Source: Solirubrobacterales bacterium
GTDB lineage: Bacteria > Actinomycetota > Thermoleophilia > Solirubrobacterales > JBBDJG01
Direction: 5' to 3'
Length of the DNA stretch: 64,000 bases
Assembly: GCA_040880005.1 (NCBI GenBank)
Contig: JBBDJG010000028.1
Span: forward strand, 11,395-75,394
Shown: positions 6,360 through 56,188 of the stretch, one piece after another
Layout: each line of letters opens with the position of its first letter
Position numbering within the stretch: the first letter of the stretch is position 1
The notes under the pieces: model-generated
Seen by the model: the letters and a program-made list of their open reading frames with translations, nothing else
What the model was told of the DNA's origin: nothing
Database searches by the model: none
Translations under genes and position numbers: made by a program

Positions 6360-7747
6360 GTGTCGCAGACGGCCCGACGCGTTTTCCGCGGCTGAAGCTC
6401 TTCTCGCGCGCTACCCACGACGCGAATGTGGTTTTGAGCGGCGCACACTTGATCGATCCGCGCGCAGATATCGAAGGCACGTTCGACCTCGTCGTCCGGG
6501 ACGGGGAGATCGCCGAGCTGTGCACACCGGGCGCAGTGGCCCCGACCTCTGACACCGAGCTGGTCGATGCGCGCGGCCTTACGGTGCTGCCGGGGTTCGT
6601 GGACCCGCACGTCCACCTTCGCACGCCGGGGCGCGAGGACGAGGAGGACCTGGAGTCCGGTACCCGTGCCGCAGCGGCAGGCGGGTTCTGCGCCGTGCTG
6701 GCGATGCCCAACACCGATCCGGTGACCGACAACGCCGCCGTGCTGTGTTCGCTCCAGGAACGAGCATCCGAGCAGGCCAACGTGCCGGTCGGGTTCTTCT
6801 GCTCGATCACGCGGGAGATGGCGGGCACCGACCTGAGCGAGATGGCGGAGCTTGCGCTCGAGGGCGCCGCGGGCTTCACCGACGACGGCGTGCCCGTGCG
6901 CGAGGCGCGCGTGATGCGGCGCGCGTTGCAGTACCAGCGTCTGAGCGGAGCTGTGCTCGCCCTGCACGAAGAGGACCCGTCGCTGTCGGGCAAAGGAGTC
7001 ATGCACGAGGGCGCCGTATCGACCCAGCTCGGCCTGGCGGGCATCCCATCGGTGTCCGAGAGCACGATGATCGATCGCGATGCGGAGCTAGCCCGCTACG
7101 AGGACGGACGCATCCACGTCTTGCATCTCTCGGCCGCGGAGTCGGTCGAGGCGGTCGCGCATGCCAAGCAGCGCGGCACGCGGGTGACCGCGGAGGTCAC
7201 TCCCCATCACCTCACGCTCACCGACGATCGGGTGCGCTCGCTCGACTCCAACCTCAAGATGAATCCGCCGCTGCGCTCGGAGTCCGACCGCCAAGCCTTG
7301 ATCGACGGGCTGCGCTCCGGCGTGATCGACTGCGTTGCGACCGATCACGCGCCGCACTCGCGCGAGGAGAAGGAGATGCCCTTCGAGCAGGCGCCGATGG
7401 GGGTCACGGGGCTCGAGACAGCCTTCGCGGCTCTCTACACGGACCTCGTGGCACCGGGCGTGATCTCGCTGGAGCTGCTACTGGAACGCATGACGTCGGC
7501 CGGCAAGCTGTTCGGGCTGGCGGCGCCGACCCTGGCGCAGGGCGCGCCCGCCAACCTCTGCTTGATCGATCTGGAATCGAGTTGGACCGTGGGCGAGTCG
7601 GGTTACGAGAGCAGGTCGTCCAACTCCTGTTTTGCGGGACGTTCGCTGCAGGGCAAAGTCTTGATGACGCTGGCGTCTGGGTCGGTTGCGTTCCGCGAGC
7701 GTTCGTTCTCGATCAGGCTTGCCTCCGCGACGGAGGGCGGCAGATGA
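6356..7747 (+). CDS. pyrC: Dihydroorotase
   Basis: GFVDPHVHLRTPG, MPNTDP and DCVATDHAPH give the amidohydrolase metal ligands. An ATGA overlap links it to pyrB. Confidence 0.9.
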   Translation: MSVADGPTRFPRLKLFSRATHDANVVLSGAHLIDPRADIEGTFDLVVRDGEIAELCTPGAVAPTSDTELVDARGLTVLPGFVDPHVHLRTPGREDEEDLESGTRAAAAGGFCAVLAMPNTDPVTDNAAVLCSLQERASEQANVPVGFFCSITREMAGTDLSEMAELALEGAAGFTDDGVPVREARVMRRALQYQRLSGAVLALHEEDPSLSGKGVMHEGAVSTQLGLAGIPSVSESTMIDRDAELARYEDGRIHVLHLSAAESVEAVAHAKQRGTRVTAEVTPHHLTLTDDRVRSLDSNLKMNPPLRSESDRQALIDGLRSGVIDCVATDHAPHSREEKEMPFEQAPMGVTGLETAFAALYTDLVAPGVISLELLLERMTSAGKLFGLAAPTLAQGAPANLCLIDLESSWTVGESGYESRSSNSCFAGRSLQGKVLMTLASGSVAFRERSFSIRLASATEGGR

Positions 7748-8286
7748 AACTCGACCGCTCGCGCGCGGCGCTGATCGTGGTGGACGTGCAGGAGGCGTTT
7801 CGGCCGGCGGTTCTCGACTTCGAGCGGATAGCGCTCAACACGGCGGTGCTGGTGCAGGGCGCGCGGATACTGGAGCTGCCGGTGCTGGTGACCGAGCAAT
7901 ACCCGAAGGGCCTCGGGCACACCGTGCCCGAGGTGGCAGAGCACCTCGAAGGCATAGAGCCGATCGAGAAGATGGCGTTCAGCGCTGCGGCTGCGGCGAG
8001 CTTTCCGGGAACGCTGCAAAACAGCGGCCGCGACCAGGTGCTGCTGTGCGGGATCGAGTCGCACGTGTGCGTCAATCAAACGGCCGAGGATCTGCTCGCG
8101 GATGACTTGGAGGTGCACGTCGCGCGCGATGCGGTCACCTCTCGCAGCGAGGAGAACCGGGAGCTGGGCCTGCGCAAGATGGAGCGCTCGGGCGCGATGC
8201 TGACCAGCGTCGAGACGGCGTTGTTCGAGCTGCTCAGAGAGGCCGGGACTCCCGAGTTCAAGCAGATTCAGGCGTTGATCAAATGA
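7744..8286 (+). CDS. Isochorismatase-family hydrolase embedded in the pyr operon
   Basis: ALIVVDVQEAF...LPVLVTEQYPKGLGHTVPEV...LLCGIESHVCVNQTA carries the catalytic Cys of cysteine hydrolases. ATGA overlaps link it to both pyrC and carA. Only the last 180 aa of track ORF 6745..8286 are real. Confidence 0.8.
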   Translation: MKLDRSRAALIVVDVQEAFRPAVLDFERIALNTAVLVQGARILELPVLVTEQYPKGLGHTVPEVAEHLEGIEPIEKMAFSAAAAASFPGTLQNSGRDQVLLCGIESHVCVNQTAEDLLADDLEVHVARDAVTSRSEENRELGLRKMERSGAMLTSVETALFELLREAGTPEFKQIQALIK

Positions 8287-9434
8287 GCGGTGCGTACCTG
8301 CTGCTCGAGGACGGAGTGCGCTTCGACGGCGAGATGGTGGGCGCGCCGAGCAACGCCACCGGAGAGGTCGTCTTCAACACGGCGATGACCGGGTACCAGG
8401 AGGCCGTCACCGATCCCTCCTACCACGCGCAGATCATCACCTTCACGTATCCGATGATCGGCAACTACGGTGTCTCCGAGCAGGCCGTCGAGTCGAATCG
8501 CGTTCACGCTCGCGCGATCGTGATGCGCGAAGCCAGGAATGACATTTCCGCTTTTTCCTTAGGCGGAAAAGGCGGGAGCTCCGAGGGTACGGATGGCGGC
8601 TGGCTGGACTGGTTGCGCGAGCAGGGCATAGCGGCGATCGGTGGCGTCGACACCCGAGCATTGGTACGACACATCCGTGACCGGGGCGCGATGCGCGGAG
8701 GCGTGTTTTCGGCCGAGCTGTCGGAGTCCGACGCCCGCGGGCAGATCGGGGCCGAGCCGTCGATGGATGGCTGCGACCTCGCGCGATTCGTGACACCACA
8801 AGAGCCGATCGTGCTCGACCCGGACGCGTCCGGGCCGGCCGTGGTCGGCATCGACACCGGCATCAAGGGATCGATCGTGCGCGAGCTGCGCGCGCGCGAC
8901 GTACGCCTGACGCTGCTGCCGTGCACGAGCACTCCCGAAGAGGTGCTCTCCCATTCGCCGGACGCGATCTTTCTCGCCAACGGCCCAGGCGACCCGGCCG
9001 CGCTCGACTACGTCGTCGATACGGTGCGCGCGCTGGTCGGCAAGGCACCCGTGTTCGGGATTTGCCTCGGCCACCAGCTGCTGTGCCGCGCGGTCGGCCT
9101 CGAGACGTTCAAGCTGCCGTTCGGCCATCGCGGCGCGAACCACCCGGTCAAAGACCTGGAGACCGGCCGCATCGAGATAACGGCCCAAAATCACGGCTTC
9201 GCGGTTGTTGGGCCGGGTGGGGCCCGCACGCTCGCCGGCGACGGGCCTGTGCGCTGGCAGACGGATTTCGGGACGGCGGAGCTGTCGCACTTGAACCTCT
9301 ACGACCGCACGGTCGAGGGGCTCGTGCTGCGCGACGTGCCCGGTGCAACGGTCCAGTACCACCCCGAAGCGGGGCCCGGGCCGCACGACTCGCTGTACCT
9401 CTTCGACCGCTTCCTCGACATGGCGGCGGTATGA
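8283..9434 (+). CDS. carA: Carbamoyl-phosphate synthase small (glutaminase) subunit
   Basis: GEVVFNTAMTGYQEAVTDPSY and the glutamine amidotransferase triad context (GICLGHQLL, HNHGFAV) are present. It carries an extra ~10-aa Gly/Ser loop at 8536-8582. Confidence 0.95.
   Translation: MSGAYLLLEDGVRFDGEMVGAPSNATGEVVFNTAMTGYQEAVTDPSYHAQIITFTYPMIGNYGVSEQAVESNRVHARAIVMREARNDISAFSLGGKGGSSEGTDGGWLDWLREQGIAAIGGVDTRALVRHIRDRGAMRGGVFSAELSESDARGQIGAEPSMDGCDLARFVTPQEPIVLDPDASGPAVVGIDTGIKGSIVRELRARDVRLTLLPCTSTPEEVLSHSPDAIFLANGPGDPAALDYVVDTVRALVGKAPVFGICLGHQLLCRAVGLETFKLPFGHRGANHPVKDLETGRIEITAQNHGFAVVGPGGARTLAGDGPVRWQTDFGTAELSHLNLYDRTVEGLVLRDVPGATVQYHPEAGPGPHDSLYLFDRFLDMAAV
8536..8582 (-). repeat. Palindromic element copy A, inside carA and in frame (inverted orientation)
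   Basis: The reverse complement GGAGCTCCCGCCTTTTCCGCCTAAGGAAAAAGCGGAAATGTCATTCC aligns with copies B-E. It encodes DISAFSLGGKGGSSEG. Confidence 0.6.
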
Positions 9435-9457
9435 AGTTCGCGTACACCGCATCGCCA

Positions 9458-9520
9458 GAGTTCCCGGTTTTTCCGTCTAAGGAAAAACCGGAATATGTTC
9501 TGCGGCAAAACCGGAATATG
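9458..9520 (+). repeat. Palindromic element copy B, in the carA-carB spacer
   Basis: GAGTTCCCGGTTTTTCC-GTCTAA-GGAAAAACCGGAATATGTTCTGCGG has a perfect 11-bp stem. It is followed by a second half-copy, AAAACCGGAATATG. Confidence 0.75.
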
Positions 9521-9531
9521 GAGCAAACTGA

Positions 9532-12831
<3,300 letters not shown>

Positions 12832-18379: not shown

Positions 18380-18452
18380 GCCGACTCGCGCTACGCCGCC
18401 TGCGGTGGCTTGCGCGGTCGGGAACTCTGAGGGCACGGACACCGAGCCCTGG

Positions 18453-18500
18453 GAGTTCCCGGTTTTCGCGTTTAAGCGAAAACCGGAAATATTCTGCGCC
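18453..18500 (+). repeat. Palindromic element copy C (best-preserved copy), in the dtd-rimP spacer
   Basis: GAGTTCCCGGTTTTCGC-GTTTAA-GCGAAAACCGGAAATATTCTGCGCC has a perfect 11-bp stem (18459-18469 paired with 18476-18486). Confidence 0.8.
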
Positions 18501-18570
18501 ACCCGTCCGAGATGCCGCTGCGCCACCCGCACGCCCCGACGTCGCCTGCAGCGGACCGCCCGTCGACGCT

Positions 18571-18597
18571 TTGAAGCGGGGTTTGTGCCGCTATACT
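18571..18597 (+). promoter_or_regulatory. Candidate promoter of the rimP-nusA-infB leader
   Basis: TTGAAG (18571-18576), a 15-nt spacer, then TATACT (18592-18597). The spacer is short, so confidence is low. Confidence 0.35.
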
Positions 18598-18655
18598 CCT
18601 GCTTCGCAAAGTTTCAAGGAGACCTGCGGTCCGAGTCGGGCCGCAAACACTGGAA

Positions 18656-18678
18656 GTGGGCCTCCGCCCACTTTTTTT
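18656..18678 (+). terminator. Intrinsic terminator in the rimP leader (candidate attenuator)
   Basis: GTGGGC-CTCC-GCCCAC is followed by TTTTTTT. It ends 7 nt before the rimP ATG and is preceded by a second hairpin, GCGGTCC-GAGTC-GGGCCGC, at 18625-18643. Confidence 0.65.
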
Positions 18679-18684
18679 GCGCCA

Positions 18685-19227: not shown

Positions 19228-20789
19228 GCAAAGAGATCGTGGAAGCCGTTCACGCGTTGGAGCGCGAGAAGGGGATTTCGTCTGAGCGGCTCATGCTCGC
19301 GCTGGAGGACGCCCTGCTTTCGGCGTACAAGAAGACCGAGAACTCTGCGCGCTACGCGCGCGTCGACATGGATCGCGACTCGGGCGACTTCCGCGTGTTC
19401 GAGCTGATCCTTCCCGCCGACCTCGAGGAGCAGCTGATCGAAGAGGCGATCGTCGAGAAGGAGAAGGAGGAAGAGGAAGCCGGTGGCCCGGTTGATCCCG
19501 AAACAGGCGAGCGCCGCCAGCCCGAGGAGCTGGAGATCGATCTCACCCAGATTCAGCCGCACATGGACAGGGTCAAGCAACGGGATGTGACGCCCGGCGA
19601 CTTCGGTCGCATAGCAGCGCAGACTGCGAAGCAAGTGATCCTGCAGCGAATCCGCGAAGCCGAGCGCGACATGATGTTCGACGAGTATCAGGACCGCGTT
19701 GGTGAGATGATCACTGGCATCATCCAGCAGTCCGACTCGCGCTACACACTCGTGCAGCTACGCGAGCGTGTCGAGGCGCTGCTGCCCAAGTCCGAGCAGG
19801 TCGACAACGAGCGCTACGACCACGGCATGCGGGTCAAGGCCGTGATCACGGAAGTGTCGGGATCGACCAAGGGCCCGAGCATCATCGTCTCGCGCCGTAG
19901 CCCCGAGCTGATCAAGAAGCTGTTCGAGCTGGAGGTTCCCGAGGTCGCGGACAGCTTGGTGGAGATCGTCAATGTCGCGCGTGAACCGGGTTACCGATCG
20001 AAGATCGCCGTTATCTCCCACACCGATGGAGTGGACCCGGTGGGTGCCTGTGTCGGACCACGTGGATCCCGCGTGCGCATGGTCGTATCCGAGCTACGTG
20101 GCGAGAAGATCGACATCATCCCCTTCAACGACGAGCCTGCGCGGTTCGTTGCCAAGGCTCTGTCGCCCGCTCGTGTGCGCGAGGTGCTGGTTGACGACGA
20201 GAACAAACAGGCGACCGTCGTCGTTCCCGACGATCAGCTCTCACTCGCGATCGGCAAGGAAGGGCAGAACGCGCGGCTCGCCGCTCGCCTGACCGGCTGG
20301 CGGGTCGACATCAAGTCCGAGAGCGAGTTCGCCGAAGTGGAGGCCGACCTGGGCATCGAGTCCGAAGAGGAGGTCTCCGGTCGCTGCGCGGCCGTGCTGG
20401 GCTCCGGCAAGCGCTGCCCGAACGCCGCGCTGCCCAGCTCTCGCTACTGCGGCCTGCCGGCCCACCAGGAGCTGGCCGACCAGGAGGGCGACCGAGTTGG
20501 CGGCGCGGAGGCCCCCGAGCCCGACGAGGACTCCGGCGAGCCCGAGACCGCCGTCGAAGCCAGCGAGGCGGTTGAAGAAGCCGAGGCCGAGGCCGTGGAG
20601 GAAGTCGTCGAGGCGGCTGTTGAAGAAACCGTCGAGGAAGCGCTTGTGGAGGCGGTAATCGAGGAAGTCGTGGAAGAGGCCGTCGAGGAAGCAGCGGAGG
20701 AGGCTGCCGCGGAGGCACCGGAGGCGCCGGCAGCCGACACGGAAGCGCAGCGGCCCGGCGGCGACGGCGAGGCCGAAACGGAGCGCTGA
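19224..20789 (+). CDS. nusA: Transcription termination/antitermination factor NusA with an NTD insertion and a Cys/His + acidic C-terminal extension
   Basis: The GTG start overlaps the rimP stop. EIVEAVHALEREKGIS, the S1 domain and KH domains (FGRIAAQTAKQVILQRIREAER, GACVGPRGSRV, LAIGKEGQNARLAARLTGW) identify NusA. The tail has C-x9-C-x10-C-x4-H followed by an E/A/V-rich repeat. Confidence 0.93.
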   Translation: MSKEIVEAVHALEREKGISSERLMLALEDALLSAYKKTENSARYARVDMDRDSGDFRVFELILPADLEEQLIEEAIVEKEKEEEEAGGPVDPETGERRQPEELEIDLTQIQPHMDRVKQRDVTPGDFGRIAAQTAKQVILQRIREAERDMMFDEYQDRVGEMITGIIQQSDSRYTLVQLRERVEALLPKSEQVDNERYDHGMRVKAVITEVSGSTKGPSIIVSRRSPELIKKLFELEVPEVADSLVEIVNVAREPGYRSKIAVISHTDGVDPVGACVGPRGSRVRMVVSELRGEKIDIIPFNDEPARFVAKALSPARVREVLVDDENKQATVVVPDDQLSLAIGKEGQNARLAARLTGWRVDIKSESEFAEVEADLGIESEEEVSGRCAAVLGSGKRCPNAALPSSRYCGLPAHQELADQEGDRVGGAEAPEPDEDSGEPETAVEASEAVEEAEAEAVEEVVEAAVEETVEEALVEAVIEEVVEEAVEEAAEEAAAEAPEAPAADTEAQRPGGDGEAETER

Positions 20790-20792
20790 TAG

Positions 20793-23198
20793 GTGGCGAA
20801 GAAGCGCGTCTACGAGATCGCCAAGGAGCGCGGGCTCGCAAGCAAGGATCTGCTCGCGAAACTTCGTGAGGCGGGCCTCGACGTGAAAGCGGCTGCGTCA
20901 ACCGTCGACGAAAAGGACGCGCTCGCAGCGCTGAAAGGCACCAAGAAGGCAGCGCAGCCGAAGGCGAAGGCACCGACACGCAAGACCGCCACCAAAGCGC
21001 CCGCCAAGGCCGTGAGAGCAGCCAAGGCAGCCAAGGCAACAAAGGCAGCAACCACGAAGGCCGCCAAGACTGCGAAAACGACGAAGGCCGCCAAAGCAAC
21101 AAAGGCCGCAACAAAGGCCGCAACCAAGGTCGCGAAGCCGGCCGGCAACGCAAAGGCGGAACGCGACGGTCCGGCCGCCGCGCCCGTGCCGCCACCGGCG
21201 ACGGCCCAGCCAAACGGACAGGGCGGCGCGCCACCGCGCCCGAAGCGCACTGTCGCGGCCGAGCGCACCGGGTCGGTGCCGACGCGACGGCGCCGGGTAG
21301 TGATCGACTCGCAGGCTTCACGCCGCCAGCAAGGAGGCGGCCCTCCGCAGCAACAGCAGCAACGCCGACGGCGAAGCCGGGGCCGCGGAGCGCCACCGCC
21401 GGAACCTTCGGAAGCGCCGACGGCGACCGCCGTTGCCGCGCCGGAGGCGGTGCGAGTCCCGTCGGGCTCGACCGTGCGCGAGGTGGCCGAGCACTTGGGG
21501 CTCCAGACGGCCGAAGTGATCAAGAAGTTGATGTCGATGGGCGAGATGGCAACGCTCACCCAGACGCTCTCCGACGAAGCGATCGGCGTGCTTGCCAACG
21601 AGTTCGACAGGGAGGTCGAGGTCGTGAGCATGGCTGCAGAGGATGCCGAGCTTGCGGTTGTCGATGCGGAGAAGGACCTCGTCCCGCGCCCGCCGGTGGT
21701 GACGATCATGGGACACGTCGATCACGGCAAGACGTCGCTCCTGGATGCGATTCGTGAGACGGAAGTTGTGGCCGGAGAGGCGGGAGGCATCACGCAACAC
21801 ATCGGCGCCTACCAGGTCCACCACAGCGACAAGCTCGTGACGTTTCTCGACACTCCCGGCCACGAAGCGTTCACCGCAATGCGAGCTCGCGGAGCCAAGG
21901 TGACCGACATCGCTGTGATCGTCGTCGCGGCGGACGATGGAGTGATGCCGCAGACGACGGAGGCGATCGATCACGCGAAAGCGGCCGGAGTTCCGTCGAT
22001 CATCGCCGTCAACAAGATCGACAAGGAAGGCGCGCAACCCGATCGCGTGCGCAATGAGCTGGCGGCTCAGAGCCTGACGCCCGAAGAGTGGGGCGGCGAG
22101 ACCGTCTATTGCGACGTGTCGGCCAAGACCAAACAGGGCCTCGACCATCTGCTCGACATGATCCTGCTGGTGGCGGAGGTGGAGGAGCTGAAGGCCAACA
22201 AGAACGTCTCGGCTAGTGGCACGGTGATCGAGTCGCAGCTCGACCCCGGGCGCGGCCCGGTGGTCACGGTCCTGGTCCAGCGCGGCACGTTGCGAATGGG
22301 CGACGCGCTCGTGGCGGGCGCGCATGCCGGACGGGTGCGGGCCATGCATAACTTCGTCGGCACGCGGATCGACGAAGCGCTTCCGGGCGAGCCCGCCGAG
22401 GTGCTCGGCTTTGACAGCGGGCCCGATGCCGGCGAGGCGGTGCGAGTCGTCGAATCCGACAAGGAAGCGCGCCAGCTCGCCGAGGAGCGGGGACATCGGT
22501 TGAAGACGGAGGCCCTCGCCCGTCGCCAGCGCGCCGCTGTCAGTCTCGAGGACGTCTTCGAGCGGGTCAAGGAGGGCAAGACCACGGAGTTGAACCTGAT
22601 CGTCAAGGCGGACGTTGCCGGATCGCTCGAAGCGATCCAGGACGAGATCGCCAAGCTCCCCGATCAAGACATCACGATCCACATCATCCATACCGGCATC
22701 GGGGGTATCTCGGAGTCGGACGTAATGTTGGCGGCGGCGTCCGGCGCGGTGATCATCGGGTTCAACGTGCGCCCGCTCGCGGAGGCAAAGACGCTTGCCG
22801 ATCGCGAAGGCGTCGATGTGCGCACCTACACGGTGATCTACCGCGTCACGGAGGAGCTGCGGGCGGCGATGCAGGGAATGCTCGAGCCCGAAGAGGTCGA
22901 GCAGTCGCTGGGGATGGCCGAGGTGCGGAACCTCTTCAAGGCCTCCAAGGTCGGCACGATCGCCGGCTGTCACGTCACGCAGGGCAAGATCGTCAGGTCT
23001 GCGAAGGCACGCCTGGTTCGCGACGGCACAATCGTCAACGAAGGAAGGATCTCCTCCTTGAAGCGCTTCAAGGAGGACGCGAGGGAGGTCGAGGAAGGCT
23101 TCGAGTGCGGCATCACGCTCGAGGACTTCCAGGACGTCAAGGTCGATGACGTGATCGAGGCGTACGAAACCAAGAAGGTCGAGCGCAAGCTCGCATAG
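20793..23198 (+). CDS. infB: Translation initiation factor IF-2
   Basis: The N-terminus is [13 protein letters not shown] Lys/Ala/Thr-rich low-complexity linker precedes the GTPase domain ([26 protein letters not shown]). Confidence 0.97.
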
Positions 23199-27100: not shown

Positions 27101-27115
27101 ATACGTCGCGCCGCA

Positions 27116-27325
27116 GAGCTCCCGATTTTCGCGTCCGAGAACGTGTTTCAAAATCCCCCGCGCCCGTCCGGTGGCGCCGGATCGTTGCGGATGCTTCATC
27201 TTCGGTCGGGGCAATGGCGCTGCCATTGCGCCCTCCCTGCATCCTCGCCCCGCTTGATCCGGCGCCACCAGCCTCACACGCGGGATTCCAAAATACGTTC
27301 TGAGCGAAAATCGGAATATGTTCCG
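27116..27325 (+). repeat. Palindromic element copy D: a split/long version forming a ~210-nt extended hairpin in the rpsO-pnp leader
   Basis: The left arm GAGCTCCCGATTTTCGCGTCCGAGAACGTGTTTCAAAATCCC pairs with the right arm GGGATTCCAAAATACGTTCTGAGCGAAAATCGGAATATG. Inner stems are CCGGTGGCGCCGGATC/GATCCGGCGCCACCAG and the apical GCAATGGC/GCCATTGC. Confidence 0.7.
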
Positions 27326-27441
27326 ATCGGGAGCCCTGAGGGCTCGAGTAGCGGCAGTACCTGCGCTGCTACCATGCGCGGAAATTCCGGACAGAGAACG
27401 AATCGACGCGGCCAACCGGAGGCCGCCGAAAGGAAACACAT

Positions 27442-38750: not shown

Positions 38751-38975
38751 CTCCTCAACCTATCCGAACCCATGCAGCCGCAGACCCGCGAAAGGGCAGG
38801 TGGTTGATCCAACTCTCGAATAGAGCGACTTCGATCGACCACCTGGTCATGGGCGCTCGAAGCCAGGCACAATCGCGTGACTTCCGTGCCTGTTCTGGTG
38901 TGGCGAGAGGTGGCAGGGGAGCCCGGCGCGGCGTCGAACACGTGACGGGGGCCCCTCCGCGGGGCCTTGATCGTC

Positions 38976-41465
38976 ATGGCCAAACGACGGAAGCGCCGCA
39001 AGACCTCGTCCCGCCGACGCTCGCGTGCGGGTCTCGCAGCACTGCGCCCACGCTTGCCGCGAGTGTCCGAGATGTCGCAGGCCCAGATCGACGCGCTGGG
39101 GCTCGGGCTCGTGGGCGCCGGGGTGTTCTTCGGCTTCGTCTTCTACGGCGGCTGGGACGGCGGCAAGGTGGGCGAGACGCTCGTGACCGCATTCACGTTC
39201 GTGCTTGGGGCGGTTGCCTACACCGTGCCCGTGCTGTTTGCGCTCGCGGGGCTCGCGATGATCGCGCGCCCGCTCGTCGATGCGGTGGCACGCCCGCTGG
39301 CGGGTGTGATCGTGCTGGTCTGCTCGCTGACGCTCGGCTTCGCGGTCTCCACTCTTGGGTTGGGCCCCGGGGAGGCCACGTCGGCGGACCTGTTCAATCC
39401 CGACTCGTCTATGGATCGCGGGGGCCTGATCGGCGCGGGGCTGTTTTGGATCACCGACACGCTGTTCTCGGACGCCGGTGCACACCTCGCGTTCCTGTTT
39501 GGCACGTTGGGCGGGTTGCTGCTGATCACCGGCGCATCGATCTCGGCGACCGCACGCTCGCTTCTCGCCGCCATCTCGCAAACCGCGCGCGTAGTGCGCG
39601 CCTGGATCGCGCAACTTGCGCACGCCTTCGCACACGAGCGGGTGCGTGCACGCCGCGACGCGCGCCAGCGGCGAAGGGTGGAGTACCGCGAACCGGAGGG
39701 CGAGCCGCGCGTGACCGCACTCGGCGGGGAGGCCGCGACCGCTGAGCAGCATTCCGTCGAGCCGGAAGCCTTTGCCGCCGAGGTCGACGCGCTCGAGCCT
39801 GATGAGCACACGCTGCCAGCGATCGCGGAGGCGGAAAACACCAAGGCCGCCAAGGTCGCCAAGGCCCTCGACAGCCACATCGAGCTGACGCCGATGGGCA
39901 ACAAGCGCAGCGAGGTGACCGAGTCCGACGAGATCGACTACGAGCTTCCCGACCCCGCTCTGCTACGCCACTCGGACAAGAGTCAGGGTCCGGATGCCTC
40001 CAACCAGCAGGAGGTTGCCGAGCTGCTGGTGACGACGCTCGGGCACTTTGGCATCGAGGCCGAGGTGATGGGGCGCGTCACGGGACCGCGAATCACACGG
40101 CACGAGCTGCGTCTGGCACCCGGCACCAAGGTGTCCAAGGTCACGCAGCTCAAGGACGACATCGCCTACGCGCTTGCATCGACCGACATTCGCATCCTGG
40201 CGCCGATTCCCGGCAAGCAGGCTGTCGGCGTCGAGGTGCCCAACAAGCGCCACAGGATGGTTTTCCTGGGCGACATCTTCAGACGCGAGATGGGCACCGC
40301 GTCGAAAAAGGGCAGTTCCGGCTCTCGCTTGGCCGCGAGAACCGGGAGCCCTTCGGGCGCCTCGCCGCTGGCCGCATGGCTCGGCAAGGACATCGCCGGA
40401 AACGCGGTTTGGACGGACATCGCACGGATGCCGCATGCGTTGGTTGCGGGCACCACCGGATCGGGCAAGTCGGGCTGCGTCAACACGATCCTGGGCTCGA
40501 TCCTGCTGCGCGCATCGCCGAACGAGGTGCGGATGGTGCTGGTGGACCCCAAGCGCGTTGAGCTGAACCACTACGAAGACATTCCGCATCTGCTGACGCC
40601 GGTCGTGACGGCGCCGCGCAAGGCGGCCAATGTGCTCAACAACCTGATAGCGGAGATGGAGAGCCGCTACGAGTTGATGGGGAGGTCGCGCGCTCGCAAC
40701 ATCGTCGAATGGAACCGTATCCGCCGCGCCGCCGGAGAGCCCTCGCTGCCGTACATCCTCTGTGTGATCGACGAGCTGGCCGACCTGATGATGGTGGCAC
40801 CATCCGAGGTCGAGGACGCGATCATCCGGATCGCCCAGAAGTCGCGCGCCGTCGGGATCCACCTCGTGCTGGCGACGCAGCGCCCGTCGGTCGACATCAT
40901 CACGGGAACGATCAAGGTGAACATCCCGGCGCGGATCGCGTTCGCGGTCTCGTCACAGCACGACTCGCGTGTGATACTCGACCAGGGCGGAGCCGAGGCC
41001 CTGCTCGGACAGGGCGACATGCTCTTCAGGCCGGTCGGCTCGTCGAAGCTGCAGCGCATCCAGGGCGCGTACATAACCGAAGAGGAGATCGCGCGCATCA
41101 CACAGCGCTGGCGCGACCAGGGCGAGCCCGAGTACGAGCAGGAGCTGCTCGAGGGTCGCAGCCCCGGCGATCCGTCGGAGGGCGACCTCGATCCCGACTC
41201 CGACGAGCTGCTCGAGCAGGCTGTGATACTGGTCGCGCAGACCCAAACTGCGTCGGTCTCGATGCTGCAGCGTCGCCTGCGCGTTGGCTATACGCGTGCC
41301 GGGCGGTTGATCGACATGCTCGAGCGACGCGGCGCGATATCGGGCTACGAAGGCTCCAAGCCTCGTCAGGTGCTGATCACCGAAGCGGATATCGAGCGCG
41401 TGCTGCGCATGGGAGACGACAGCCCCGACCCGGTGTCCACGGCAGCCGAAACCGACGAGGCCTGA
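38976..41465 (+). CDS. ftsK: DNA translocase FtsK/SpoIIIE
   Basis: It has N-terminal TM helices, a linker, a motor domain (AGTTGSGKSGCVNT Walker A, VIDELADLMM) and a C-terminal winged-helix gamma domain (SVSMLQRRLRVGYTRAGRLID). It carries ~18 extra aa at 40313-40350. Confidence 0.95.
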   Translation: MAKRRKRRKTSSRRRSRAGLAALRPRLPRVSEMSQAQIDALGLGLVGAGVFFGFVFYGGWDGGKVGETLVTAFTFVLGAVAYTVPVLFALAGLAMIARPLVDAVARPLAGVIVLVCSLTLGFAVSTLGLGPGEATSADLFNPDSSMDRGGLIGAGLFWITDTLFSDAGAHLAFLFGTLGGLLLITGASISATARSLLAAISQTARVVRAWIAQLAHAFAHERVRARRDARQRRRVEYREPEGEPRVTALGGEAATAEQHSVEPEAFAAEVDALEPDEHTLPAIAEAENTKAAKVAKALDSHIELTPMGNKRSEVTESDEIDYELPDPALLRHSDKSQGPDASNQQEVAELLVTTLGHFGIEAEVMGRVTGPRITRHELRLAPGTKVSKVTQLKDDIAYALASTDIRILAPIPGKQAVGVEVPNKRHRMVFLGDIFRREMGTASKKGSSGSRLAARTGSPSGASPLAAWLGKDIAGNAVWTDIARMPHALVAGTTGSGKSGCVNTILGSILLRASPNEVRMVLVDPKRVELNHYEDIPHLLTPVVTAPRKAANVLNNLIAEMESRYELMGRSRARNIVEWNRIRRAAGEPSLPYILCVIDELADLMMVAPSEVEDAIIRIAQKSRAVGIHLVLATQRPSVDIITGTIKVNIPARIAFAVSSQHDSRVILDQGGAEALLGQGDMLFRPVGSSKLQRIQGAYITEEEIARITQRWRDQGEPEYEQELLEGRSPGDPSEGDLDPDSDELLEQAVILVAQTQTASVSMLQRRLRVGYTRAGRLIDMLERRGAISGYEGSKPRQVLITEADIERVLRMGDDSPDPVSTAAETDEA
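40313..40350. repeat. Palindromic element copy F (GC-shifted), inside ftsK and in frame
   Basis: CAGTTCCGGCTCTCGC-TTGGCC-GCGAGAACCGGGAGCC has arms matching copy C at 9/11 and 10/11. It encodes GSSGSRLAARTGSP. Confidence 0.5.
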
Positions 41466-55428: not shown

Positions 55429-56088
55429 GTGCGCGGGACTGGAAGGCACCGAACTGTGGCAATCGCGGCCGTGGGCGCGTTGGCACTGGCGGGATGCGGC
55501 GGCGGGGGAGGGGACAAGAAGGCGTCCAAGCCCGAGTGCAAGGACGTGGCACAGCCGGCCGCGAGACAGAGCGCCGACCACAAACGCCCCACGCTGCGCC
55601 TCAATCCTCGCAAGACTTACACCGCGACGGTGGTGACGAGCTGCGGCACCTTCGCAGTCGAGCTGGACGTCAAACGCGCCCCTCGTACGGGCGGGTCGTT
55701 CGTGACGCTCGCTCGCCACGGGTTCTACGACGGTCTGACCTTCCACCGGATTGCTGCGGGCTTCGTGGTTCAGGGAGGCGATCCCAACGGCGACGGCAGC
55801 GGAGGCCCCGGCTACTCGATCACGGAGAAGCCGCCCGGCGACCTCGCCTACTCGCAGGGAACGGTAGCGATGGCGAAGACCGGCAACGAGCCGCCCGGCA
55901 CGTCTGGAAGCCAGTTTTTCGTCGTCACCGCGGACAGCGATCTGCCGCCCGAGTACGCGCTGCTCGGGACGGTCGTCAAGGGCCTCGACGTGGTTCAGGC
56001 GATCGAGGCCGTCGGGACGGGCGCCGGATCCGACGGACCGCCGGCCAAGCCGGTCGTGATCGAGAAGGTCACGATCACGGAAACGTGA
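55429..56088 (+). CDS. Cyclophilin-type peptidyl-prolyl cis-trans isomerase lipoprotein
   Basis: It has the lipobox LALAGC plus FHRIAAGFVVQGGDPNGDGSGGPGY and GSQFFV. Confidence 0.9.
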   Translation: MRGTGRHRTVAIAAVGALALAGCGGGGGDKKASKPECKDVAQPAARQSADHKRPTLRLNPRKTYTATVVTSCGTFAVELDVKRAPRTGGSFVTLARHGFYDGLTFHRIAAGFVVQGGDPNGDGSGGPGYSITEKPPGDLAYSQGTVAMAKTGNEPPGTSGSQFFVVTADSDLPPEYALLGTVVKGLDVVQAIEAVGTGAGSDGPPAKPVVIEKVTITET

Positions 56089-56126
56089 TTCCGATTTCTC
56101 CTTAGACGGCAAAATCGGTAGCTGCG
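56085..56126 (+). repeat. Palindromic element copy E (degenerate), overlapping the PPIase stop codon
   Basis: GTGATTCCGATTTCTCC-TTAGAC-GGCAAAATCGGTAGCTGCG is colinear with copies B and C, with 2 stem mismatches and a shortened 3' part. Confidence 0.55.
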
Positions 56127-56188
56127 AAGGCACGTCTCCCGACCGGTCGTCCAGTTACCCGTTCATTCGGCCATGAGGTCTTCACATA

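Follow-up and report, generated by a model that had tools for sequence, protein, structure and literature searches.

The carA gene and the palindrome read within it

The window analysed here is a stretch of 64,000 nucleotides from a Solirubrobacterales contig (JBBDJG010000028.1), and it contains a carA gene (8283..9434, plus strand) in which a short palindromic repeat lies in frame. The gene encodes the glutamine-hydrolysing small subunit of carbamoyl-phosphate synthase (383 aa), as read from its open reading frame (ORF). The encoded protein is 100% identical to P0001, a protein from a Solirubrobacterales metagenome-assembled genome (MAG) that carries the PF00988 and PF00117 domains, and it matches the E. 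coli chain 1cs0_B with E=5e-83. It comprises a CPSase_sm_chain N-terminal domain and a GATase domain (class I glutamine amidotransferase), with intact GICLGHQLL and YHPE motifs of the Cys-His-Glu triad, and HPE is conserved in the full-length alignment with 1cs0_B. Upstream, an isochorismatase-family gene (7735-8286) stands between pyrC and carA and overlaps both; it occupies the same position in every related locus examined and is an unusual member of a pyrimidine operon.

The palindromic repeat of carA, hereafter copy A (8523..8595, minus strand), falls within the coding frame of the protein. On the plus strand, positions 8541-8582 (GACATTTCCGCTTTTTCCTTAGGCGGAAAAGGCGGGAGCTCC), of which the initial annotation quoted the reverse complement, read ISAFSLGGKGGSSEG in the carA frame, and the in-frame reading of the copy, (N)DISAFSLGGKGGSSEGT(D), corresponds to about residues 86-103 of CarA. 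In the mRNA sense, RNA folding and a hairpin scan place the two arms at 8545-8558 and 8565-8578 (14 bp, including G-U pairs) around the loop TTAGGC (8559-8564). The possibility of an assembly artefact was rejected, the insert being present in independent NCBI, ENA and JGI assemblies.

The protein loop that contains copy A is 10 residues longer than that of E. coli CarA (HMMER alignment with PDB 1cs0_B/1bxr_B, in which the E. coli chain is gapped at 6+4 positions and its residues 86-97 form the aligned loop). It exceeds by the same 10 residues the 13-residue loop that most Solirubrobacterales homologs have. The initial annotation had taken the segment to be shorter by about 10 residues, which is the wrong direction, and had named an SNWR-type motif as the one replaced, whereas the native loop of this order is NxEDAAxAEGG. 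The stretch from R82 to W107 is the most variable one in a 56-sequence CarA alignment and has zero invariant columns, and in the structure predicted by AlphaFold (AF2) a predicted local distance difference test score (pLDDT) below 50 is given to residues 89-103, which lie in the connection from strand 78-81 to helix 107-113. These data are consistent with a tolerant loop and support the surface loop initially proposed only indirectly; exposure itself is not proven by such a model.

A family of palindromic repeats in spacers and genes

Copy A belongs to a family of small repeats with a common anatomy, namely a stem of 11-14 bp, a loop of 5-6 nt (GYCTAA) and the conserved flanks GGAGCTCC and AAT.ATTC. 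The hairpin itself measures 28-30 nt, and with about 10-20 nt of conserved flank per side the full element reaches about 50-70 nt, so that the 40 nt quoted at first are a part of it and fall short of its extent. In the orientation of the copy found between carA and carB, the consensus is ...GCCCTCGGAGCTC-CCGGTTTTTCC-GYCTAA-GGAAAAACCGG-AAT.ATTC..., with an 11-bp stem, a 6-nt loop and both flanks kept. Twelve copies from the window and related loci align over 70 columns with zero gaps (alignment A2); 90.9% of the stem cells of these 12 copies are paired, 7 of the 11 pairs show changes on both sides, and in the AT-rich copies conservation extends to the loop and the flanks.

From the 12 copies of A2 we built a covariance model (R1), which was run over the window with its filters off. 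The training set includes copies A, B, C and D, and copy E (see below) is outside it. Copy A is thus one of the 12 training sequences, which makes its score (71.4 bits, E=1e-14) partly circular. A degenerate core pattern (CCGNTTTTNCCGNCTAAGGANAAANCGGAA, at most 3 mismatches), from which copy A departs by 1 mismatch, has 3 matches in the window versus 0 in 100 shuffles. Together with the ORF reading and R1, this bears out the initial annotation of a palindromic element lying in frame in carA; the resemblance is not fortuitous.

Six copies occur in the window, four in spacers and two in genes; five are short and one is a long composite, and every copy tested is predicted to fold into a hairpin. 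Copy B (9444..9513, plus strand; R1 63.3 bits, E=7.8e-13, training copy) lies in the 97-nt spacer from the carA stop to the carB start, in the orientation inverse to that of copy A. The carA and carB genes of relatives abut or even overlap and enclose no element, and the junctions of loci L095 and L098 are without copy B. The longest inverted repeat found in the window by the repeat finder (I1, 8546-8592 with 9447-9493, 47 nt, 79% complementary) consists of copies A and B; a long-range pairing or inversion between them was considered and rejected in view of the relatives that have no copy B. Copy D (18439..18508, plus strand; R1 70.6 bits, E=1.6e-14, training copy; fold z=-6.0) lies in the spacer between dtd and rimP, both genes being identified by Pfam; its stem is CCGGTTTTCGC/GCGAAAACCGG, and a second hairpin, made by the left flank, stands before it.

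Copy C (56069..56138, minus strand; R1 62.4 bits, E=1.2e-12, training copy) abuts the stop codon (56086-56088) of a gene for a cyclophilin-type peptidyl-prolyl isomerase (PPIase), as identified by Pfam on the ORF 55429-56088. The TGA stop of this gene stands immediately before the TTCCG of the hairpin and matches the TCA of the element end CGGAATCA; from this correspondence, the element may supply or abut stop codons. Copy C and the intergenic copies of L008, L011, L014 and L104 tend to sit 0-12 nt past a stop codon. The long composite (27110..27345, plus strand) is located between rpsO (identified from its ORF) and pnp (PNPase by Pfam). A palindrome of about 180 nt is bracketed there by the left end of the element with its stem arm (GAGCTCCCGATTTTCGCG) and by the right arm with its end (GCGAAAATCGGAATATGTTC), and a partial inverted left-flank motif follows; the corresponding inverted repeat (I3) pairs 27138-27183 with 27256-27301, and R1 gives a weak match at 27300-27350. 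This composite could be a long or parental form of the element or the product of a nested insertion, or else a hairpin of the pnp leader could have recruited element ends.

The second in-frame copy, copy E (40297..40365, minus strand; R1 29.3 bits, E=5.7e-5), is GC-rich and diverged. It lies in ftsK (38967-41465, plus strand), where it encodes ...KKGSSGSRLAARTGSPSGAS... / ...SSGSRLAARTGSPSGAS... in the linker between the FtsK alpha domain, which ends at residue 426, and the motor domain, which starts at residue 466 (Pfam). In a set of 120 homologs plus the window protein, this FtsK loop has 17 residues in 112 of 121 sequences; the eight nearest relatives have 22-26, and the window protein has 37. 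Over carA and ftsK, the element would thus add 10-20 amino acids to variable loops. By eye, the copy E peptide is similar to that of the decayed insert in the L095 carA (SDSRLAARSRSTEGA), and the copy E DNA to the carA copy of L102. The ftsK gene of L104 is without insert, and the L104 contig has a copy of the element 12 nt past the stop codon of the RNase J gene.

Beyond the window, the family was found in Solirubrobacterales MAGs and metagenome contigs (L008, L009, L011, L014, L096, L101 and L104). The dtd-rimP copy recurs at the same place in L096, where it differs from that of the window by a compensated C-G to T-A change. A scan for the 3' half of the core in one genome per species (185,579 species) gave 14 matches, and the full hairpin with flanks was present in only 4, all of them Solirubrobacterales MAGs. 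Viral contigs scanned with the core pattern yielded 0 matches; Rfam gave nothing relevant at gathering thresholds over the whole window, nor at E<=1 over 8400-9600; and a literature search for a described Solirubrobacter repeat returned nothing relevant. As a query for other in-frame insertions we used a 54-aa concatenation of the element-encoded peptides, a single peptide being too short, and it gave 0 matches. The distribution differs from a loop found throughout the phylum with no nucleotide kin in spacers, the case that the initial annotation had set against its own proposal: copies similar to that of carA are intergenic both here and in other genomes.

Orthologous states of the carA site and turnover of the stem

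In 117 close CarA homologs, we measured the loop from (V/I)MR(E/D) to WLDWL. A conserved loop of 13 residues, typically GKNGEDAATAEGG and of the same length as in E. coli, is found in 69 of the 117; the insert-bearing homologs (23 of 117) have 17-25 residues, four have an intermediate length (14-16) and 21 a short loop (8-12). In a neighbour-joining tree with the loop masked, the homologs without the 13-residue loop form a single clade (84/100 bootstraps), which holds the insert (23), its decayed versions and the short remnants (21). A CarA scan of metagenomes provided 80 more distant loci (63-75% identity), in which 48 of the 54 readable loops are 13 aa long and without the element. The canonical element is in none of these loci, which therefore serve only as a source of native-loop DNA, and L017 and L018 carry GC-rich hairpins at the site. 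The ortholog alignment proposed in the initial annotation thus returned a lineage-specific segment, absent from the 69 homologs with the 13-residue loop and present in the 23 with 17-25 residues. A side observation concerns P0002, the CarA homolog of a Solirubrobacterales MAG (493 aa), in which some 110 residues of the N-terminal domain, across the loop region, are duplicated internally; the duplication is either real or an assembly artefact.

The DNA of the site was recovered from 11 orthologs. The hairpin is canonical and in the codon phase of the window (phase 0) in L098, L009 and L101; it has the stem CGAGATTTCC/GGAAATCTCG, also in phase 0, in L100. Phase 1 is used by the hairpin of L096, which has the perfect stem CCCGAATTCGC/GCGAATTCGGG with the loop TTAGGC unchanged, and those of L097 and L017, which have perfect, GC-rich and quite different stems; the hairpin has decayed in L095 and L102. 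The loop TTAGGC is read as the codons TTA-GGC in the window, L009, L098, L100 and L101, and as (C)TT-AGG-C in L096, and the encoded peptides are unrelated (FSLAGK vs SLRREF vs PPRADR). The third phase, in which the TAG of the loop is a stop codon, was seen in no ortholog.

L098 and L099, which encode near-identical proteins, differ by exactly 30 nt, which correspond to the hairpin. Since L099 keeps both element flanks (AATGATTCC followed by TCTGAGGGT), it looks like a secondary deletion of the palindrome and not like an empty site; the boundary ambiguity of the indel is 1 nt only, with no duplication. With its restriction to one lineage, its nucleotide kin in spacers, its two codon phases and this 30-nt indel, the segment behaves as the in-frame insertion that was initially suspected. 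The window CarA and P0003 (locus L103) are sisters in 80/100 bootstraps, and the P0003 loop has 13 aa.

To compare the stems at the orthologous site, the ten carA-site hairpins were aligned arm to arm (alignment A4). In A4, 93.6% of the cells are paired versus 66.8% after shuffling, these counts being biased upward by the choice of the arms with a hairpin finder, and 9 of the 11 pairs have changed on both sides. Covariation scores 0.727, versus 0.236 in shuffles, a value that 0 of 500 shuffles reached; sliding the partners by 1-3 columns lowers the pairing to at most 54%. As two codon phases are used for the same DNA, a peptide-conserved loop is ruled out. Because of these two phases, and because the stem has turned over almost wholly and is still paired, conservation acts at the nucleotide level, i.e., on the nucleic acid of the carA segment and not on its peptide. 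The pairing may be kept by selection on an RNA or DNA structure, by template switching within quasi-palindromes, which is an established mutational mechanism, or by conversion or re-insertion from other copies. The last of the three has some support from the carA stem of L097, which recurs in an L102 spacer, and from that of L096, which resembles a spacer copy of L101.

Proposed origin of the insert and comparison with known repeats

From these data we propose, with a probability of roughly 0.8, that the carA segment is one copy of a small palindromic family similar to miniature transposable elements with inverted repeats (MITEs) or repetitive extragenic palindromes (REPs), i.e., a selfish repeat, like REPs and Rickettsia palindromic elements (RPEs), that is tolerated in a variable loop of CarA. 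The element would have entered carA in the ancestor of one Solirubrobacterales clade, probably in one single event, and landed in the poorly conserved loop that leads from a beta-strand (IVMR) to a helix (WLDWL) of the N-terminal domain. It would be translated as 10-15 extra residues and tolerated because its length keeps the frame and two of the three phases are free of stops. Purifying selection on carA would keep the insert in frame, and the insert would otherwise evolve largely as DNA, its pairing being presumably maintained by events at the level of DNA (template switching within quasi-palindromes, or gene conversion among copies) and not by selection. Its later fates would differ by lineage: a perfect hairpin with a new stem, a codon phase moved by flanking indels, decay, or deletion of the hairpin leaving short remnants. 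The same family would have entered ftsK in frame as well, and spacers, often at 0-12 nt from stop codons.

Several points weigh against this proposal, besides the upward bias of the A4 counts. First, we found no transposase, no target-site duplication and no empty site with untouched native sequence, the window ORFs not having been scanned systematically for transposases; for this reason, mobility by transposition is inferred from the dispersed, lineage-variable distribution alone. Second, both the translation of the segment and its neutrality for the enzyme are presumed, and the AF2 model is mediocre (mean pLDDT 71.6), with other low-confidence regions too. Third, perfect 11-bp stems have long been kept with fully different sequences (L096, L097 and L017), where neutral decay predicts otherwise, and selection on the structure is possible. 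Fourth, stem variants of carA recur in spacers elsewhere: the L097 stem CCCCGATCCGC matches that of an L102 spacer, and the L096 stem GAATTCGC resembles that of an L101 spacer. Such recurrence agrees with repeated insertion or conversion no less than with one event. Fifth, it is by judgement that we take the 13-aa loop of P0003/L103 (GATTCGTTCTCA, 'DSFS'; DNA GATTCGTTCTCATGTACGG) as a remnant of the 5' arm and not as native sequence.

In another explanation, the carA site would be a hotspot that received the element several times, either by independent hits in different lineages or by repeated overwriting through conversion from other copies. It would account for the spacer copies that match carA stems, for the position of P0003, with its 13-aa loop, beside the window CarA, and for the two codon phases with their differing right flanks (the native CGCAACGAC and then GAATAT in L096, AGGAATGAT in the others). 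However, the insert-bearing, decayed and short-remnant loops all fall in one clade (84/100 bootstraps), all cases share one insertion point, the flanks, with about 10-15 nt, offer homologous conversion little length to work on, and the P0003 loop DNA resembles a remnant of the element. We regard a hotspot as possible but doubtful.

That the carA hairpin is a selected cis-acting structure, with the extra peptide as a by-product, appears unlikely to us, and so do the roles that it might have as a signal of mRNA stability or processing, as a translational pause in the pyr operon transcript or as a protein binding site at the DNA level. Such selection would explain the compensation of 9 of the 11 pairs and the 93.6% pairing at the orthologous site, the persistence of perfect stems among CarA lineages of just 75-85% protein identity, the conservation of loop and flanks in AT-rich copies, and the many copies that stand 0-12 nt past stop codons in one orientation, as do functional REPs (PMC3733652). 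Against this, copies of the family run both with and against transcription and stand in unrelated settings (ftsK, dtd-rimP, rpsO-pnp, the 3' end of the PPIase gene); in many lineages the carA hairpin is decayed (L095, L102) or has disappeared by deletion (L099 and the 21 short-loop homologs), and most Solirubrobacterales never had it. Covariation can moreover arise from quasi-palindrome template switching or conversion between copies, without selection, and zero Rfam families match. There is thus a small chance that the carA hairpin, and perhaps the whole family, is a selected nucleic-acid structure that has stayed paired through full sequence turnover and two codon phases; if so, a selfish repeat would have been domesticated in the gene of an essential enzyme, where it could act in the decay, processing or translation of the pyr mRNA or as a DNA recognition site.

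An ordinary loop expansion under protein-level selection, with a coincidental similarity to spacers, is highly improbable: CarA loop length does vary generally across CarA proteins, but the R1 match of the carA segment (E=1e-14, training copy), the matching flanks of untranslated copies, the reading of the same DNA as unrelated peptides in two phases and a perfect palindromy that has no protein-level rationale all speak against it. Three further candidates were rejected, namely a PyrR binding loop (the flank UCCGAGGG is only vaguely like its consensus, and the family is not restricted to pyr genes), a DNA uptake sequence (which would give no reason for the stem covariation) and CRISPR repeats (the copies are not arrayed).

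The selfish repeat that we propose is comparable to three known systems. RPEs insert in frame in housekeeping genes (PMC10969869; background in PMC3733652), and the present repeat is like them in being a dispersed palindrome that is both intergenic and in frame in housekeeping genes, that is read as an extra peptide at a tolerated site and that persists at its site across related species (PMC10969869). It differs from RPEs in size (about 50-70 nt and 10-15 added residues in carA, versus about 100-150 bp and about 30-50 residues), in host (a free-living, high-GC soil actinobacterium, versus AT-rich obligate intracellular alphaproteobacteria) and in having only two in-frame cases. It is set apart from RPEs by its length and its Solirubrobacterales host and not by a sequence comparison; kinship in sequence is not expected, since the hosts are unrelated and the sizes very different. 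The RPE precedent invoked at first thus serves as an analogy and not as a family assignment.

The resemblance to REPs lies in the imperfect palindrome of 20-40 nt, in multiple copies with stem covariation among them (PMC3733652), the stem being 11-14 bp and the loop 5-6 nt in all copies here. REPs stand mostly just downstream of coding regions and occasionally inside genes (PMC3733652), the latter having been reported in several species (PMC10969869, PMC3733652); the present element, with four spacer copies and two genic ones in 64 kb and with copies 0-12 nt past stop codons in other genomes, may be placed similarly. In the papers searched, REPs are not reported from Thermoleophilia. The REP super-families conserve the tetranucleotide GTAG or CGTC at one end (PMC3733652). 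In the present consensus (GGAGCTCCCGGTTTTTCCGYCTAAGGAAAAACCGGAAT.ATTC) neither tetranucleotide is terminal, CGTC being found only in the loop of two copies, and no gene for a REP-associated tyrosine transposase (RAYT, Y1/HUH) was identified, the window ORFs not having been scanned systematically for one. Intragenic MITEs (ERIC, Correia, Nezha and the like) are likewise small non-autonomous repeats able to fuse in frame with host ORFs (PMC10969869), but they usually measure 70-300 bp or more and have terminal inverted repeats and a target-site duplication, whereas the present element is essentially one hairpin: its arms are the inverted repeats, the short form is below 70 nt and the long form about 235 nt, and no duplication is seen at the L098/L099 indel. 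With no GTAG or CGTC tag, a length far below that of RPEs and an unrelated host, the repeat works like RPEs and REPs yet belongs to neither family.

What is new is the host group, the presence in two essential genes, the well-sampled orthologous states, and the full turnover of a stem that stays paired across two codon phases. In-frame translated palindromes are best known from Rickettsia and had been expected mainly in reduced intracellular genomes. The orthologs suffice to follow the fate of the insert through retention, phase change, decay and deletion, and the compensatory stem turnover at one coding site is a clean natural test of selection versus DNA-level self-correction. As for annotation, inserts of this sort inflate the apparent diversity of loops in conserved enzymes.

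Three other repeats or structures were noticed. In L102, upstream of carA (9905-9990), two tandem GC-rich hairpins (GCCCGATCCGC-TT-GCGGATCGGGC) have the stem of the in-carA hairpin of L097. Upstream of rimP, at 18590-18680 and in L095, L096, L101 and L102, a TATACT -10-like box, GGAGACCTGCGG, a hairpin and a strong intrinsic terminator (GTGGGCCTCCGCCCACTTTTTTT) form a unit that precedes rimP-nusA in all related loci and has no Rfam match; it could be a leader or attenuator, or a small RNA. Finally, in coding sequence at 20574-21161, the repeat finder detected closely packed short repeats, both tandem and direct, first Glu/Ala/Val-rich with a 12-nt periodicity and then Ala/Lys-rich, which are presumably low-complexity regions of NusA and IF-2.

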